A stretch of 64,000 nucleotides of DNA, taken from Daphnia carinata (lineage: Eukaryota). Positions within the stretch are counted from its first letter, which is position 1; each line of letters starts with the position of its first letter. The position numbers and the translations under genes were made by a program. The stretch covers positions 1,054,001 through 1,118,000 of the forward strand of contig NC_081331.1 in the NCBI RefSeq assembly GCF_022539665.2, given 5' to 3'. The notes beneath the pieces are model-generated. The model saw only the letters and a list, made by a program, of their open reading frames with translations, searched no databases and was not told the DNA's origin. Positions 352 through 13,298 of this stretch are shown here, piece by piece.

Positions 352-3846
<3,495 letters not shown>

Positions 3847-4174: not shown

Positions 4175-5766
4175 TTAGTTTTTCGTGAATTGTTCGGTTA
4201 GGGCAGCCAATTTCGCCATGAATTTAGCTTCTTCTTCTTTTGTTGAGCGCGTCCACGCCAATGGTAAGTGAGTTGGTACAGGACGGCGATCTGTAAAGAA
4301 AAAATTACGACGTAATTCAGAGCTGTCTTCTGTTGTTATTTCTATATCACAGCAATTTTTACTTGCTTCTAAATACCCAACATATTGCCTATCCTATCCC
4401 TTTACGTCACAAAAGTTTGCATCTCTTGAAGTCTATGCTTAATGGACTCACCCTCAAAGAACAAGCCAGATGGGAACTGTAAAGCAGCTTCTGATATAGC
4501 TAACCAGGTAGCCGTGTCAGCCCCTTGTTCAGCGGTACGAAGACGATCTTTCATTTTCTCATAAAAATCTGGCATTGAGGAACGAACTGCGGGTGTCTAA
4601 GAACGTCAAAATGTATTAATTTAAAACACTTTGATTTATTACTAAAAAAATAATTACATCAGCCCACCTATATAATAAAAAAAAAAAATTAGTCACGTGA
4701 TTTTTAAAAAATAACTGGTAAACTTTTGCAAAAATTTGACTACCCTGGATGCATCGCCGAAAAATGAATATTTGGATACTGTTTGGCATACTGTTCCATC
4801 ATTACCACCTAAACAATTGCAAAAGTAGCTACTAAACCCCATGTCAGGCGTACCACACCAAGAAATTCGCACCTGCTGCCTTTTGTTCTGAGCATATGCC
4901 ATGGTTCCATCAAATTTCTTTTCTTTTTCTAATTGCCAATCATCAACATTCAGTTTCTGTACCAGCATGCCGCCACTTGACACAATTATCACTCGAGGTT
5001 GGGTAGCTCTAGTTGAAATTGTGATTAGTATACAAAAATCTCTTATATTAATGTCTTTCGATTTTATACTTGGACAACAGAGGAATAAGGGATGTTGTTA
5101 GCAAATGGGTCCCTAAAGTATTTGTTGCAAAATTTTTTTCATTTCCATTGCTATCGATTTCTCTGTTGTTTATCATACAGCCAGCATTATTCACCTGTTA
5201 TCCAAATATGTAAGTATAACAATCTACAAGCTACTATTATTATAGCTTACTAAAACATTCAATTCTGTTCCACTCTCAACAAACCTCCTACCAAATTCAA
5301 CAACACTTTTGGAATCAGAAAGATCAAGTGGATGAATATGGACATTCTGAAAGGATATATGTTTATGATGTATGAAATTATCTTGATCTACAAAATGAAA
5401 ATAACTTACATTGTTCCCTGAAGCTTTTTGAATTTCAGACTGTGCTTCTTGTGCTGACTTTTTATTACGACATACAAGATGAATAGTTCCTCCTCTCTTG
5501 GCTATGTCTAAAGCAATACATTTACCAATGCCACTGTTGCCACCGGTAATCATATATGACTTTCCTGAACAATCAACGTTGAGATCAAGATCAGCAGGGT
5601 TAAAATTCTTACTAGCTGACTCATATCCCCCTCTAGATTGAAATTTTAAAACACAAATATGTTGTAAAATACAAACACAAAAACATCGAGGTGTTTGAAA
5701 ACATTCTTACTTGGTATAATCCCGCAATCCTCTGGCAAACCATACAGCGTTTCTATAGAACGACAT
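4175..5766 (-). CDS. DHRS12: Short-chain dehydrogenase/reductase DHRS12-like, 9 coding exons, 323 aa
   Basis: Exons 5766-5711, 5632-5410, 5346-5251, 5194-5070, 5008-4873, 4808-4744, 4667-4658, 4596-4452, 4290-4175 (972 nt). N-terminus MSFYRNAVWFARGLRDYTKGGY, Rossmann motif TGGNSGIG, NNAG, catalytic YAQNK, MHPGWADTPAVR and C-terminal THLPLAWT are typical of DHRS12. Confidence 0.93.
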
Positions 5767-6249
5767 TAAAAGACTTTTGGGGTTTTTATTGATGTGAAAG
5801 TAAATATGATTCCCACCAATTCTATGACAAATTCTAAAGAATGAGATCCCCTAGAAGATAGCAAGCATTATATAAACGAAATGTAAGCAAGACCCAGATA
5901 ACACATATCAACCTGGTTACGTAAAAAAAAAAATAACAAAAAACGCTCTTCCATCTATCGGCTGAAAGATGAATTACAGAATTTGGCTCATCGGACGATT
6001 TTGACCAGCACCAGTTATTGACAGCCCCTGAGTTTGATTAAGTTATTGGTTTTCTCGTTAAACCAGGCATTTTTAAAATAATAAAAAAGCAATTGCCTGT
6101 TAGCGCCCCTACATTCGAATTAGTTTTTTACGTTTCGTTCGGAAACTATAAAGCCAATTGAAAAACAAACTTGATTTCCGTGATTACCATTCAATTTGAA
6201 TCGAAATTATGTAATTTCAGCAAACTTTGAAATTAGCAAAAATGAAAAA

Positions 6250-6751
6250 GTGGAAGGCTATACCACATGGAAGGCCTTCCCACTTCAAAATCCGCAAAAA
6301 AATGAAAACTCCTAGAATACGATAAAAATCACGCAGAACATTCAAAATTAAACGCTGATTTCGATAAAGTGGTTTGTTATGTCGTCAAACCAGACCTGCC
6401 GTAATCGCGATTGAAAATTAATCACGATTGCGATTTCGATTAAAAATTTTAATCGGCGATCAAATTATTTTAAAATGATCGAAATCGGCGATTAAAGTGG
6501 AAAAAACTTAATTTTTAATCGCGATTATTTCACGATTATTTAGCGACATCTATGAACGGTAGATGAGACTATATGAAAGTCTACTCATAGCTTTGTCATT
6601 TTTGTAGCAGACGCTTTTTTTTAATTTTCACTTGTTTCAATTTTTTCAATTTAAACAATGGCAAGTTATTTTCTTACTGCTAGATGGCGGTCAAAAGTAA
6701 TCGGAAAAACAATCGCTAAGAAATTTAATCGCCGATCAAATTTTTTCAACA
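6250..6751. mobile_element. Left part of an older degenerate repeat/MITE-like sequence interrupted by the palindromic element
   Basis: Dense AATCGCGATT/AATCGGCGAT motif array at 6400-6740. Segment 6253-6362 has a diverged direct copy at 11870-11971. Boundaries are uncertain. Confidence 0.5.
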
Positions 6752-6757
6752 GACGAA

Positions 6758-9030
6758 TATAGCAATCCGTATATGGCAATCCGTTTTTATGGCAATCCGT
6801 TTTACACAAAAAAAAAAAAAAAAAAGCGCACTTTTTTCTTTTTTTCCGACACGTAGCCATCTACCGCTCAGACTCGTTATTACTGGCGTACGCAATTTCA
6901 GTCCATTGGATGCCATTCGCAGTTAGTTCAGTAGCGTGGATGGAGAATAACGCGTGGCTGGAGGAACAATTGAAAAATGGATAAGATAATACAACAAAAG
7001 AATAGTAAGTATAAACATTATTATATTGGTTTTCAATTATTAATTATTGTTTATTAGATCAAGTTATGAAGCTGCAGGCCCAATTATTGGAACAACACAA
7101 AATATTAGATAACAGCAAAGCTAAGGATGGTAAGGCCTGATGTATGTAATGATTCTATTTATTTGCTTTTATTCATTTGTGTTTTGTAGCTCAAATTTTG
7201 AGTCTACAAGCTCACCTAGGGGAAAAGAACAAATTGGAACAGAACAGTTTCCAAACAGTGAAGGAGGTTTTTCCAAACTCATCCCTAACTGAACATGAGG
7301 ATGAATTGGCATTAGGCGAACACAGTCAGGTACCAAAACGTTTCAAATAAGAATTCAAATTAAGTATAGAATTTTAACAAACAATTATTTATTGTTTAGT
7401 TATTCAGTCTACCACTTGACAGTGTGTTAAAGTTAAATTCTTTTAGTGCTGCACTAAAAGAATTGTTAGTAATAAGTCCATGCAGCGAAGGAAGTGAACA
7501 ATTGTGGGACCGTATTTGGGCTGAAAATGGGTGTGGTATGGAAACCGAGATATGGCACGAGTTCAACATAAAACATGGATTAGGTACTTTTCGGTTTTTT
7601 GTCTATTGAAAAAGTATTTTTAATGCTATTATTTTGCATTGACAGAATTTTAGCAGGGGATCAAGTCAACTCTGGAAGTGTTACAGGATGGAAAAGTCAG
7701 CCTACAGTTGAAAAACACTGAGTGCATTACCATTAAGGTATGAGGTAAAGTAATAGAGTATGCAAATTGTCTAATGAGAAGTACCATCTTGTGTGAATGA
7801 ATCCTGTGTAACAGCAATCCTTTATAGTTCTGTCACAGCTAGAAGCCTCAAATAATTCTGCTTCTCTTGCTAAAGAACAACTTGTCCTTTACGTTCAGAG
7901 TGTTGGTGAAGCTGGGTACTTAAATGGCCCTAAAGATGTTTCATTTCGTTGGCATTGCAGCGATGAACATCATACATGGACTCTTTAGGTATGAAAGGAA
8001 TTTTCTTGAAAATTTTTTAAATTTATGACAAAGCATTTCTCCTGCTTTTTGCCAACCATGTCTAATCTTAAAAAAAAATTTATCCACTAGGAAAGGATTT
8101 TCAGCATACTGGGAACACAACTATCAACAATGCAACATTCTAGGGGTGCTATTTTATCATTCAAGAGCCTTATACAATGATTTTCAACTGCAATTTGTAT
8201 GGCCTTTCCCAAGCTTCTGCCAGAAGTTGAATCTATGTCATGTAAGTCACATGAGCTACAATTGAGATGCTTAATGGTGTTGTTTTTCTTTTCTCAGCAT
8301 AGGTTAAAAGTAACATTGGATCTGAAAAGATTCTTGGTTGGGGCAAGACACTGAATAAATTGTAATGATTGAATGGATGACATGACATTTCTATACTTAA
8401 TTTGGATTCCCGAGACGGTATTTTATATTTAAAAAATTGAAGTGCATATCTGGGCTCCCTTCCTTTCCGTAGCCCCGTTTCCCCTTGACTCGTAATAAGC
8501 CCGTAGGGGGTCATGCCCCTACTGTACGGTATATATAAAAACAACATATACCGAGGTTTGGAGGGCTCTGGCCGGAAAGGGGACGTGGATGTCCGCTTAG
8601 TCCGATGATGTGTTCACGGAGGGCTCTGTGGCTACCCACAAATCCGAACTAAAGGTTAATCGCTCCTGTAAAAATGTTCCAAATCTTCAGCTCTTCTTCC
8701 GGCTTCTCTTAGCCAATCACCGGGTAATCTCCCCGGTGGGTCAACAAGGCAGTGTCTCCCCCTGCCTGGGTTGACGGCAACTTTTGAAAGGGCTATTGTG
8801 CCTTTTTAAAGTTGCAAAAATAATTGTAACGTGCAGAGAATTCTCAATAAATTTTTTTTTCATAAAAAATTTTTTGCAAATTTTGTTTTAAACTTCATTG
8901 TCATCATTTTCCTTCATTGTCTGTGTTCACACATTACATTTATCAATTTTTTTTTATTCAGCTTTGCACAATTCAATTTTATTGTTTTTGCCACCGTTGT
9001 ATCGTTTATCTGTAAGTATTCAATTATTAT
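6758..9030 (+). repeat. Left inverted arm of the palindromic element
   Basis: Aligns by eye end to end with the reverse complement of 9539-11809. It begins with tandem (T)ATGGCAATCCGT units at 6758-6800. Confidence 0.95.
6977..8265 (+). pseudogene. Decayed multi-exon gene of unknown family carried in the left arm (coiled-coil-like N-terminus)
   Basis: GT-AG bounded exons 6977-7004, 7058-7129, 7190-7329 and 7400-7583 splice into 141 open codons (MDKIIQQKNNQVMKLQAQLLEQHKILDNSKAKDAQILSLQAHLGEK...LWDRIWAENGCG...). Further exon-like blocks at 7646-7737, 7828-7988 and from 8091 contain stops or frameshifts. The 3' end is approximate. Confidence 0.7.
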
Positions 9031-9127
9031 TTATTACACTTTTTGAATTCATGAACTTAGACAAGGAACAACGTGTAATATCTTGATATTTTCTGAAGTA
9101 ATTTTGTATTTGTATATTGTTTTACTG

Positions 9128-9191
9128 GCATGGGAATCGATCCTCAAACATTCAGCGTGCAACGCCGATGCTCTAACATTGAGCCACGAGA
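9128..9191 (-). pseudogene. Degenerate tRNA-like unit 1 in the element spacer
   Basis: The minus strand reads TGGCTCAATGTTAGAGCA TCGGC GTTGCAC GCTGA ... GAGGATCGATTCCC. It has a D-stem GCTC/GAGC, a 5-bp anticodon stem with 7-nt loop and a degenerate B-box, but no acceptor stem. Confidence 0.55.
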
Positions 9192-9289
9192 TACATCTAG
9201 ATTTTTTATTATTGCATATCATATGTTATCGTCTAGGATGTTTATGCAGTCTTTCACAACTATATGTTTATCTTTGTATTGCTTTTATA

Positions 9290-9361
9290 ATGTCCATAGC
9301 TCTGTGGTAGAGCATTCAGCTGCGATAACTGTTACCCTGGGTTCAAACCTTACTAGATGTA
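9290..9361 (+). pseudogene. Degenerate tRNA-like unit 2 in the element spacer
   Basis: TAGCTCTGTGGTAGAGCA (A-box and D-arm) and GGGTTCAAACC (B-box) at tRNA spacing, with only weak acceptor pairing (ATGTCCA/TAGATGT). Confidence 0.6.
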
Positions 9362-9474
9362 TAAAAATCTACATCTCAATGGAGAAAATAATATGGCAGT
9401 ATTGCATTTCAGTTTTATTCAAAGTGTTAATACAAGTCCGCAAGCGACTAGAAAAAAGCCAACTTGACATCATA

Positions 9475-9540
9475 TGATTCATGGCTCATTGGTAAAGCAT
9501 CGGCGCGGAATGCCGAACATCTAGGGTTCGATCCCTGGAT
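9475..9540 (+). pseudogene. Degenerate tRNA-like unit 3 in the element spacer
   Basis: TGGCTCATTGGTAAAGCA TCGGC GCGGAAT GCCGA ... GGGTTCGATCCC. It has an A-box, a perfect 5-bp anticodon stem and a B-box, but no acceptor stem. Confidence 0.6.
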
Positions 9541-11809
9541 AATAATTGAATGCTTACAGATGAACTATGCTTACAGGAAACAATGCTTACCATTAAACGT
9601 GGCATAAACAATAAACGAGAATTGAGAAAGCTAAATAAAAAAAAGATGATAAATGTAATGTGTGAAAACAGACAGTGAAAGAAACAAAATTTGCAAAAAA
9701 ATTTTATAAAAAAAAATTTATTGACAATTCTCTGCACATTACAATTATTTTTGCAACTTTAAATAGGCACAATAGCCCTTTCAAAAGTTGCCGTCAACCC
9801 AGGCAGGGGGAGACACTGCCTTGTTGACCCACCGGGGAGATTACCCGGTGATTGGCTAAGAGAAGCCGGAAGAAGAGCTGAAGATTTGGAACATTTTTAC
9901 AGGAGCGATTAACCTTTAGTTCGGATTTGTGGGTAGCCACAGAGCCCTCCGTGAACACATCATCGGACTAAGCGGACATCCACGTCCCCTTTCCGGCCAG
10001 AGCCCTCCAAACCTCGGTATATGTTGTTTTTATATATACCGTACAGTAGGAGCATGACCCCCTACGGGCTTATTACGAGTCAAGGGGAAACGGGGCTTCA
10101 GAAAAGAAGGGAGCCCAGATATGCACTTCAATTTTTTTAATATCAAATACCGTCTGGGGAATCCGAATTAAGTATAGAAATGTCATGTCATCCATCCAAT
10201 CAATACAATTTATTCAGTGTCTTGCCCCAACCAAGAATTTTTTCAGATCCAATGTTACTATTAACCTATATTGAGAAAAGAAAAACAACACTGTTAAACA
10301 TATCAACTGTTGATCATGTAACTTACAAGACTCATAGATTCAACTTCTGGTGGAAGCTTGGGGAAGGACATACAAATTGCAGATTAACATCATTGTATAA
10401 GGCTCTTGAATGATAAACTAGCACCTGTACAATGTTGCATTGTTGATAGTTGTGTTCCCAGTACATGAAAATCCTTTCCTATTGGATAAAATTTTTTTTG
10501 GTAGATTAGACCTGGTTGGCAAAAAGGAGGAGAAATTCTTCGTCATAAATTCAAAATTATTTGAAGAAAAATCCTTTCATACCTAAAGAGTCCATGTATG
10601 ATGTTCATCTCTGCAATGGCAGCAAAATTAAAACATCTTTAGGGCCATTTAAGTACCCAGTTTCCCCAACACTCTGAACGTAAAGGACAAGTTGTTCTTT
10701 AGACAGAGAAGCAGAATTATTTGAGGTTTCTAGCTGTGACAGAACTATAAAGGATTGCTGTTGTACTGGATTTATTAACACAAGATGGTACTCTCATTAG
10801 ACAATGTGCATACTCTATTACTTTACCTCATACCTTAATGGTAATGCACTCTCAGTGTTTTTTCATCTGTAGGCTGACTCTTCCATCCTGTAACACTTCC
10901 AGACTTGATTTGATCCCCCATTAAATTCTGTGAATGCAAAATAATAGCATTAAAAATACTTTTTCAATAGACATAAAACCGAAAAGTACCTAATCCATGT
11001 TTCATATTCAACTTGTGCCATATCTTGGTTTCCGTACCACACCCATTTTCGGCCCAAATACGGTCCCACAATTGTTCACTTCCTTCACTGCATGGGCTTA
11101 TTACTAACAATTCTTTTTGTGCAGCACTAACAGAATTTAAATTTAACACACTGTCAGGTGGTAGACTGAATAACTAAACAATAAATAATTGTTTGTTAAA
11201 ATTCTATACTTATTTTGAATTCTTATTTGAAAAGTTTAGGTACCTGACTGTGTTCGCCTAATGCCAATTCATCCTTATGTTCAGTTAGGTTTGAGTTTGG
11301 AAAAACCTCCTTCACTGTTTGGAAACTGTTCCGTTCCAATTTGTTCTTTTCCCCTAGCTGAGCTTGTAGACTCAAAATTTGAGCTACAAAACACAAATGA
11401 ATAAAAGCAAATAAATAGAATCATTATGTATTAGGCCTTACCATCCTTAGCTTTGCTGTTATCTAATAATTTGTGCTGTTGCAATAATTGAGCCTGCAGG
11501 TCCATAATTTGATCTAATAAACAATAATTAATAATTCAAAACAAATATAATAATGTTTATACTTACCATCCTTTTGTTGTATTATCTTATCCATTTTTCA
11601 ATTGTTCCTCCAGCCACGCGTTATTCTCCATCCACGCTACTGAACTAACTGCGAATGGCATCCAATGGACTGAAATTGCCTACGCCAGTAATAATGAGTC
11701 TGAGCGGTAGATGGCTACGTGTCGGAAAAAAAGAAAAAAGTGCGATTTTTTATTTTTTTTCCGCCATTTTTTTTTTTATGTAAAACGGATTGCCATACGG
11801 ATTGCCATA
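9539..11809 (-). repeat. Right inverted arm of the palindromic element
   Basis: Reverse complement of 6758-9030 with scattered substitutions and indels. It ends in ACGGATTGCCATACGGATTGCCATA. Confidence 0.95.
10300..11594 (-). pseudogene. Mirror copy of the decayed multi-exon gene in the right arm
   Basis: ATG at 11594-11592 with the same splice sites. The first four exons are open (ORF 10964..11149 corresponds to 7424..7609), and later exons carry different lesions. The 3' end is approximate. Confidence 0.7.
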
Positions 11810-11815
11810 GACGAA

Positions 11816-12110
11816 TGATCGCCGATCATTTTTTTTGCGATTATCGACGGCTACCGATAATCTAAGTGAGAAGGCTATTGTCTTCCCACTTTTGTGAAAA
11901 TCCGAAAAAAAACGATATCTCTTGGAATTCGATGAAAATCACAAAATATAACCCAAATTTAACGCTGGTTCAGAAAAGGCTATTCATTTTCTTGTCAAGT
12001 TAGCCGTGTTTGAAATACACCGAATATTTGTACTGCATCGAGCTAGCACTGTAGGTACTGGCGCGCTAGCGCGGTATAATCAAAGTTGAACGCTGATTTT
12101 GATTAAGCTA
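11816..12110. mobile_element. Right part of the same older degenerate repeat
   Basis: ATCGCCGATCA at 11818-11828 repeats 6728-6738. AACGCTG(A/G)TT motifs at ~11961 and ~12089 repeat the one at ~6352. Boundaries are uncertain. Confidence 0.45.
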
Positions 12111-13298
12111 TTGTTTTTTTCTTGTACATAAGCAATTTTACCTTTCAAATTATCTGGTTCTGTATATTCGCCATACCAGCGTCAACTGGTACCCCCTGAC
12201 CAATTAGCACTTCTCGATGTTAGAGATTTTCCCGTGTTATTTGTACAAGGAATGACACATGATGCAAACAGGACGCTGCCGGCCTGTGGCCCAAGAAAAC
12301 TTAGATTTGGACATTCAGTATTCGCAGTTCACTATTCGACGATGCTTCAGCCTCGAAGAACCTGAACAGCCAAGCTGCTAAGTCGTCATTAAGTTATGCA
12401 AATATCCCTTCTTTCTTATGCAATTGGTTGACCAAATTTGTTAAATCATGCTTCTCGCCAAAACAAGAGGATTAAATCTGAATATAAGTATAGGGTGATT
12501 AAATGGTTAAACTATCTGACTTGCCAAAATCTGAGGAGTTAGAAAGCCTAGTTATAATTAGAGAATTGTAATTGTAAACTCTACCTCTGAATGGATACAC
12601 TCCAGAATTTCTTTTTAATTTAGTGTCATCAGAGACGGCGCAGATAACCACTTGCGCAGTAAGCATAAAAAAGACAACCACTAATCACAGGATCCAGCTT
12701 ACACAAAAATATTGCCAACTGAAACGTCCAAAAACATACAGATTTAAAACACGGTCGAGCCCAGTCACAAGCTCACATTCCGAGTTTCCCTCCCATCAAG
12801 CCTTTGCAACAATATGAAAACGATGCAGTTTTCAACGACATTGTTAGAATACGAGAGAGAACTGCAAGCTTCATAGGCTTTTTGAGATATACAAGAGGAA
12901 TGTTCGTAACCTTTGATTCAAACTGTAACAATTTGAAAACAAATTAGGGAGTTAGGGCAGAAAAGGGAAAAAAAAACACATGAAATATGGTTATTCATAT
13001 AAATCTCTGTTATCAAATCGTACATACTTTTGCTTTACTTCAATTAACTGTGTCTCAAATACGACGACCACACACAATTGCAAACACGATCGGAGTGCGG
13101 AAACGGTACTTCGTTGACCTAGAAACTATTAGAAAAGTTGACATCCAGTAACCCACCACATATGACCATTTCTTTAAATGACCAAGTGAAAATACGCATG
13201 GCGAATAATAACACAAGTATTCAAATGAATGCCGATTTCAACAGAAAATCACCAATGACCGCCAAATTTCGAATTACTATAGAAAAGATATTAAATGA

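Follow-up and report, generated by a model that had tools for sequence, protein, structure and literature searches.

Invariant block in an inverted duplication of Daphnia carinata: on balance, a probably homogenised part of an abundant, likely retroposon-like Daphnia repeat

The stretch of DNA analysed here, referred to as the window, comprises 64,000 nucleotides of the Daphnia carinata contig NC_081331.1 and contains an inverted duplication whose two diverged arms share a hairpin-rich block (8518-8803 in the left arm, + strand) without a single difference. On balance, we favour the view that this block belongs to a copy, present in each arm, of an abundant Daphnia repeat, likely an unclassified non-autonomous retroposon that resembles short interspersed elements (SINEs) and acts as a + strand RNA, and that the identity of the arms over the block likely reflects a recent gene-conversion tract and not constraint at this locus. 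Both the classification of the repeat and the explanation of the arm identity are inferences. It is unlikely that the block represents a novel type of RNA gene.

BLAST of the left arm (6788-9030, + strand) against the window aligned it to 11797-9599 with 91.9% identity over 2229 columns. The inverted-repeat blocks I1-I9 and sliding identity delimit the same left arm, and BLAST, inverted-repeat blocks and sliding identity likewise place the right arm, its mirror image, at 9599-11797 (- strand). The block recurs in the right arm at 9765-10050 (- strand, BLAST of the arms) and accounts for the body of the repeat described below and for most of its 3' part. When 8237-8873 was set against the reverse complement of 9695-10331 without gaps, 32 mismatches were counted, none of them within the 286 nt of 8518-8803; those closest to the block lie at 8463, 8468, 8470 and 8517 on its left side and at 8804 and 8830 on its right side. 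Over the longer interval 8471-8803, the single arm mismatch is C8517, which is T in the other arm. The 286-nt identity and the single mismatch had been reported in an earlier reading made from the letters alone (the sequence-only reading), and both are confirmed here, as is the divergence of the neighbouring arm segments, which differ at ~7% of sites according to sliding identity and segment rates.

The rates of substitution between the arms were 0.035 in the 5' region, 0.063 in the gene carried by the arm, 0.101 in the 3' flank and 0.061 in 8404-8517 (7 differences), compared to 0/286 in the block and 0.10, with many indels, in 8830-9030. At a flank rate of 0.072, 20.6 differences are expected in 286 nt and the probability of observing none is ~1e-9. 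The arm alignment has 2265 columns, of which 222 differ; when these were permuted in 20,000 trials, the longest identical run had a mean of 57 and a maximum of 142, and the second-longest run actually shared by the arms is 109, against 286 in the block. The GC content of the block is 0.46-0.56 and that of its surroundings 0.21-0.42. Beyond the two arms, BLAST detected no further copy of the block in the window, nor does the window contain tandem repeats scoring at least 80.

Contigs from sequencing runs were aligned to window positions 8300-8950 and 5900-9500. Run X1 derives from organism A, X5 from organism B and X6 from organism C, and X15 and X19 are RNA runs; the nature of X1 ('DNA?') is a guess, and no main claim rests on X1 alone. 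Of the 22 runs listed, 20 contained words of the block (12 studies), with six runs recorded as RNA, and the runs carrying these words come from organisms A, B and C as well as from invertebrate, crustacean and wetland metagenomes. In X5, X6, X15 and X19, the coverage is confined to the interval from 8433/8434 to about 8805-8819. Summed depth over this interval ranges from 10^3 upward, reaching ~3.7x10^4 in X5 and 6x10^4 in X6; for the block itself it is 10^3-10^4 in these two runs, and long contigs with a single copy of the repeat have a depth of ~45-64. At both borders the loose ends of the contigs disagree with one another (agreement 0.6-0.8), which shows that the flanks vary by copy. The loose-end letters upstream of 8434 are still similar to 8404-8433, and the start of the repeat is therefore placed nearer 8404; on the right, the copies diverge from the window at 8805, 8819, 8825 and 8828. 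The repeat thus delimited extends over ~0.4 kb, about 8404-8825, and the invariant block is a part of it. In other Daphnia the block occurs alone, without the rest of the arm, and so corresponds to the separate repeat that the sequence-only reading had itself named as an outcome that would speak against its proposal.

The internal organisation of the repeat points to a modular element with a shared head, whose subfamilies recombine modules. Its left 'head' module (8404-8517, + strand) is marked by run coverage, by loose ends and by its seven arm differences. Copies part from the window at 8525 and at 8588 and agree with it again from 8630 and 8695-8697, internal deletions are found in single copies, and the left 90 nt of the repeat, with the highest values over 8454-8519, have a summed depth 3-4 times that of the remainder. 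The repeat can also be followed in annotated proteins: the + strand frame 8601-8771 matches six clusters (12 member sequences) named 'hypothetical protein OUZ56_... [Daphnia magna]', with 84-90% identity and on at least five large contigs (8.8-14.7 Mb). The alignment of this frame has 35 invariant columns, and beyond ~8737 the D. magna sequences depart from the window and have another continuation in common. Exact-word scans of metagenome contigs (23-mer and 20-mer) and of viral contigs (18-mer), collections without Daphnia genomes, returned 0 matches. Six 16-19-mers from the block had no occurrence in the searched papers, and four of its 12-13-mers were absent from the first 12 of the 32 supplementary files of PMC8594854. 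The parts available to us of the literature found on Daphnia SINEs and on the D. carinata genome (PMC12241861) do not describe the repeat. In a survey of transposable elements in D. magna and D. pulex, SINE sequence is mostly 'Unclassified' and SINEs are the least pairwise-diverged class (PMC8594854).

The invariance of the block does not extend between species, as the window differs from the majority of organisms B and C by 14 major substitutions and one insertion within 8518-8803. Because the block tolerates change to this extent, constraint alone, which would be expected to leave several differences, does not explain the presence of 0 arm differences at a flank divergence of ~7%, and recent homogenisation would be the simplest cause of the arm identity, simpler than constraint. 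The identity run is far longer than the divergence allows and is bounded by unconverted markers, as looked for in gene conversion, and its edges at 8517 and 8804 adjoin the module border at 8525 and the right end of the repeat. A conversion tract of 286-333 nt would have erased the ~20 arm differences expected; its template would have been the other arm or one of the many other copies, and its limits would lie where module homology with the donor ends. With its abrupt limits, its complete identity and a length of ~0.3 kb, which is usual for conversion, the tract, set in arms that are ~7% diverged, resembles those left by palindrome or ectopic gene conversion. Unlike a plain conversion tract, the block coincides with one GC-rich repeat module, and X1 hints at uniformity across the family.

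The block had been described as GC-rich and tiled with stems, with one 11-mer occurring twice, and the GC profile, the folds and an inverted-repeat search bear this out. The inverted-repeat search recovered the stems GTAGGGG/CCCCTAC, CGGTATAT/ATATACCG and CACCGGG/CCCGGTG, the 11-mer GGAGGGCTCTG is repeated at 8560 and 8618, and the stem GTCAAC-AGGCAG/CTGCCT-GTTGAC appears in the predicted folds. The loop region of the CGGTATAT/ATATACCG hairpin (I6) holds an AT-rich, TATA-like run at 8530-8541 (+ strand), read from the sequence and with a putative promoter role. At the other end, a terminal hairpin of ~15-16 bp (8777-8815, + strand; inverted repeat I1 and folds) contains a T5 run at 8803-8807, at which the right arm, with A at 8804, reads TATTT in place of the T5 of the left arm. 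An A-rich stretch follows this hairpin and reaches the right border of the repeat, which is variable (~8805-8828), both window copies sharing one context. A possible internal duplication (8415-8435 versus 8521-8541) was not significant, since 32 of 300 shuffles scored equally, and a reading of 8713-8717 as a CCAAT-box or promoter was rejected because the B and C majority differs at 8716 and 8717.

The folding-energy check called for by the sequence-only reading was run on 8434-8815, which is more stable than shuffled controls whichever strand is folded (+ strand, z = -3.9; - strand, z = -6.0); 0 of 100 shuffles reached the stability of the real sequence. Natural variants were then used as a test of pairing. 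The set consisted of 19 substitutions seen in organisms B and C together with the arm difference at 8517 (positions 8463, 8468, 8471, 8492, 8517, 8551, 8599, 8602, 8609, 8610, 8613, 8615, 8617, 8716, 8717, 8721, 8739, 8745, 8746 and 8768). Minor or single-contig rows (8469, 8487, 8514, 8625, 8680-8687, 8769, 8777 and 8778) and the insertions at 8744 and 8746 were excluded. Judged in each strand's own minimum free energy fold, the 20 sites comprised 11 kept pairs, 3 broken pairs and 6 unpaired positions on the + strand, and 0 kept, 10 broken and 10 unpaired on the - strand. On the + strand the pair was kept in 11 of the 12 transitions at paired sites (binomial p 0.006); nine changes are C>T on a paired C and no disruptive G>A was found (p 0.004). 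In one of the folds, the changes 8610 G>A and 8615 C>T compensate each other. When the B-type bases (8745, 8768, and 8746 together with the inserted G) are fitted by hand on the + strand, wobble pairs would close the internal loop of the GTCAAC...GTTGAC hairpin. The arm difference C8517>T also preserves its pair, as G.U on the + strand, in agreement with what had been proposed. Runs of at least five T are absent from the + strand before 8803, and the - strand has an internal T5 at 8541 and at 8674. Natural variants thus favour the + strand, and the hairpins are likely RNA structures. As to the earlier proposal of a constrained structured RNA or single-stranded DNA, what stands is a hairpin-rich element, carried on a multi-copy unit, whose variants fit the inward-reading (+) strand only; what does not stand is constraint as a sufficient explanation.

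In the sequence-only reading the block could not be matched to ribozyme, group II intron or snRNA motifs, and Rfam searches likewise gave no known RNA family or ribozyme. At the gathering score there were 0 matches in the whole window; at E<=10 there were 0 on both strands of 8400-8850, including ribozymes (hammerhead, hepatitis delta virus-like and twister); and at E<=1 the interval 6000-12500 gave chance-level matches only, none of them in 8434-8825. Likenesses to a telomerase template, to RNase P/MRP RNA and to 7SK, considered by eye, were dropped as no model matched.

We propose that the repeat would be copied via an RNA whose recognition by a partner reverse transcriptase, or whose stability, may depend on the hairpins, especially on the terminal one with the A-rich tail behind it. 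The repeat is shorter than 0.7 kb, dispersed and present in high copy number with copy-specific flanks. Like SINEs, it measures ~0.4 kb, has hundreds of dispersed copies and is common to related species; like them also, it has a modular head, body and tail with subfamily mosaics, a variable A-rich, possibly tail-like right end past the terminal hairpin, and a strand-specific, RNA-like conservation. In stringent-type pairs of long interspersed elements (LINEs) and SINEs, a 3' stem-loop is recognised by the partner reverse transcriptase. The long hairpin that precedes the tail of the repeat and the conserved hairpins upstream of it are similar to these stem-loops, a resemblance only. Unlike classical SINEs, the repeat showed no tRNA-, 5S- or 7SL-like head and no A or B boxes in Rfam searches and a search for the box motifs.

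Several observations weigh against the SINE-like reading and against a single conversion event. An A box is found only with 2 mismatches and in the middle of the element, and there is no B box, so that the internal RNA polymerase III promoter expected of a classical SINE is missing. At E<=10, 8400-8850 shows no likeness to tRNA, 5S, 7SL or small nuclear RNA (snRNA). The depth in organisms B and C peaks at the left end, a pattern that loss of 5' ends from a + strand retroposon would not produce but that a head module in common would. Folding energy fails to pick a strand, the - strand being at least as good. It should be noted for the pairing test that the folds derive from the same sequence and that the variants are family majorities and not independent events; moreover, C>T changes may outnumber G>A changes because mutation is strand-biased and not because pairing is selected. 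Finally, common variants in X1 (at least 10%) number 3 in the 286-nt block versus 9 in the 218 nt of 8300-8517 (Fisher p 0.036), and homogenisation may therefore be family-wide, unlike a single arm-to-arm event.

The arm carries a small intron-bearing gene at 6978-7653 (+ strand), with exons at approximately 6978-7004, 7057-7129, 7190-7329, 7400-7583 and 7646-7653 and short GT..AG introns. Its product of ~143 aa ends in HGLEF followed by the stop codon. The coding sequence ends near 7653 and the block begins ~0.85 kb past the stop codon, which corrects the earlier placement of the block immediately 3' of the gene. Exon 3 shares 77-90% identity with 13 clusters, comprising 86 member sequences, named 'uncharacterized protein LOC... 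[Daphnia carinata]'; these D. carinata relatives are 114-162 aa long, have at least 86 annotated members and lie on 8 differently sized contigs. On sequence grounds, the arm is one member of a multi-copy unit dispersed in D. carinata. No Pfam family was found for the product (three exons searched), and its best look-alikes in a protein atlas scored 0.77 and 0.76, which is chance level. The unit holding both the arm gene and the block spans 6868-8825 in the window, with its mirror at 9740-11720. Past the stop codon, 7839-7985 (+ strand) forms an open stretch of 49 codons with a good acceptor site at its start and a stop at its end. A protein search with it returned no relatives, and a contig of organism B at single-copy depth matches 7796-7877 with 9 differences in 82 positions; the stretch is possibly what remains of an exon of the ancestral gene.

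The summed depth of X1 is 1.7x10^3 to 1.5x10^4 from ~6868, ~110 nt before the ATG, to 8803, drops to ~500 over 8804-9166, and is 0.2-100 upstream of the unit and 2-24 past 9167. Contigs of X1 with GT..AG joints excise 7130-7189 (depth 2209, 4 contigs), 7742-7897 and 7985-8088, and loose ends coincide with two more intron borders of the arm gene. If X1 is DNA, these joints mean that intron-less copies exist, suggesting retro-copying; if it is RNA, they are simply transcripts. Of 20 X1 variants checked inside the arm, 16 are the right arm's base.

These data bear on an alternative that we regard as rather unlikely, in which a composite retro-mobile unit has the block as its cis-acting 3' module: transcripts of the arm gene would read through and terminate in this SINE-like module, a reverse transcriptase would use the hairpins and the 2-kb unit would be amplified. 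Uniformity of the block would then follow either from propagation of only those masters with an intact module or from template switching from abundant module RNA. The dispersal of the arm gene in D. carinata, the limits of high X1 depth at both ends, the divergence of copies at 8825/8828, which is the module end, the spliced joints and loose ends at intron borders, and the lower frequency of common X1 variants in the block than beside it all count in favour of this scenario. However, the depth profile and the joints reflect a mere transcript if X1 is RNA, and all introns are kept in both window copies. The arms also share ~80 nt upstream and ~200 nt downstream of the unit, which a local inverted duplication explains better than two insertions do, and selection of masters does not shield the block from mutation after insertion. 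An extended version, to which we give little credence, holds that a host gene became a high-copy mobile unit in D. carinata, with the SINE-like 3' module as its reverse-transcription handle, renewed in each copy by template switching, hence a uniform module and a diverging cargo.

We also consider it improbable that the block is a novel multi-copy small RNA gene transcribed by RNA polymerase III (Pol III) from an upstream-type promoter, of ~245 nt, with the TATA-like run at 8530-8541, a start at ~8560 and an end at the T5 of 8803. The identity tract does begin shortly ahead of the TATA-like run and end on the first T of the T-run, no earlier run of at least five T occurs on the + strand, and the variants keep + strand pairs. 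Similarly, type 3 Pol III genes (U6, 7SK, RNase P/MRP RNA) have a TATA-like run ~30 nt before a G-rich possible start, a terminal T-run and a structured product. Unlike them, the block has no Rfam match, either locally at E<=10 or window-wide at the gathering score, is multi-copy and modular, and has its T-run broken in the right arm by the A at 8804. The supposed 245-nt RNA taken alone folds weakly better than shuffles (z = -1.9 and -2.6), and the conserved repeat, which begins 125 nt or more ahead of the supposed start, shows the same conservation in that part. A mosaic of modules, together with 3' continuations that differ in D. magna, suits a mobile repeat and not a gene, and contigs from the RNA runs extend into unlike flanks.

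A DNA-level element, either a miniature inverted-repeat transposable element or a rolling-circle element with single-stranded DNA hairpins, is comparably improbable in our estimation. Both strands are rich in hairpins, and every copy has AT-rich sequence upstream. G.T pairs are tolerated in DNA hairpins, which counts for this explanation, as the strand asymmetry of the variants would then arise from G.T pairs in single-stranded DNA. Against it, no terminal inverted repeat joins the ends, where just 8-nt AT-rich matches were found (the true ends being uncertain), no CTRR-type end was read from the sequence near 8805-8828, and the variable A-rich right end resembles the tail of a retroposon. An assembly or polishing artefact, in which reads from hundreds of copies pulled both arms to the family majority, is very unlikely: the deepest X1 contigs over 8493-8588, 8638-8719 and 8690-8825 (depth 1328-1556) do equal the window sequence, so that both arms carry the majority, but X1 depth over the arm flanks is no lower, and yet these kept arm-specific states, and the left-arm bases at 7442, 8187 and 8257, absent from X1, would have been erased by polishing.

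A second repeat, tRNA-related and SINE-like, lies tail to tail with the block at 8826-9190 (- strand), with its mirror at ~9475-9760 (+ strand), its extent being read from the sequence. It gave partial tRNA matches at 9130-9186 (- strand, E 0.23) and 9482-9537 (+ strand, E 0.34), both under the gathering score, and ARAGORN found no tRNA, including in this repeat. In X1 it is represented by up to 17 variant contigs at one site, at the depth of ~500 given above for 8804-9166, and the identity of the arms falls across it towards the centre of the palindrome. The arm starts (6788-6830 and 11760-11800) carry a ~12-nt ATGGCAATCCG-like motif three times, followed by 11-17 nt of poly(A), with the appearance of a tail left by a further retroposon immediately ahead of the arm gene. 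A further short repeat occurs on both sides of the palindrome, at 6021-6262 with kin at 6332-6402, 11942-12012 and 12070-12140; it reaches a summed depth of ~2.7x10^4 in X5 with many different flanks and is also present in the RNA run X19. A weak U4 match (19 bits, gathering score 46) is probably due to chance. Among the neighbouring genes, exons of a DEAH/DEAD-type helicase lie at 1320-2088 (+ strand; Pfam DEAD, E 0.024, below the cut-off, and DHX15-like by eye) and a short-chain dehydrogenase at 5224-5706 (- strand; adh_short, E 2.9e-08).

Taken together, these results indicate that most of the signal has a commonplace explanation, namely that the block belongs to an abundant repeat and that this copy is young or homogenised. 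The block nevertheless draws attention to an unclassified Daphnia repeat whose variation keeps pairs in a strand-specific manner, making it a candidate for an RNA structure read by the enzyme that mobilises it, and to a small gene found in many dispersed D. carinata copies with this repeat on its 3' side. Should retro-mobilisation prove responsible for the amplification of the gene, this would constitute a clear example, in an invertebrate, of a SINE-like tail driving gene amplification.

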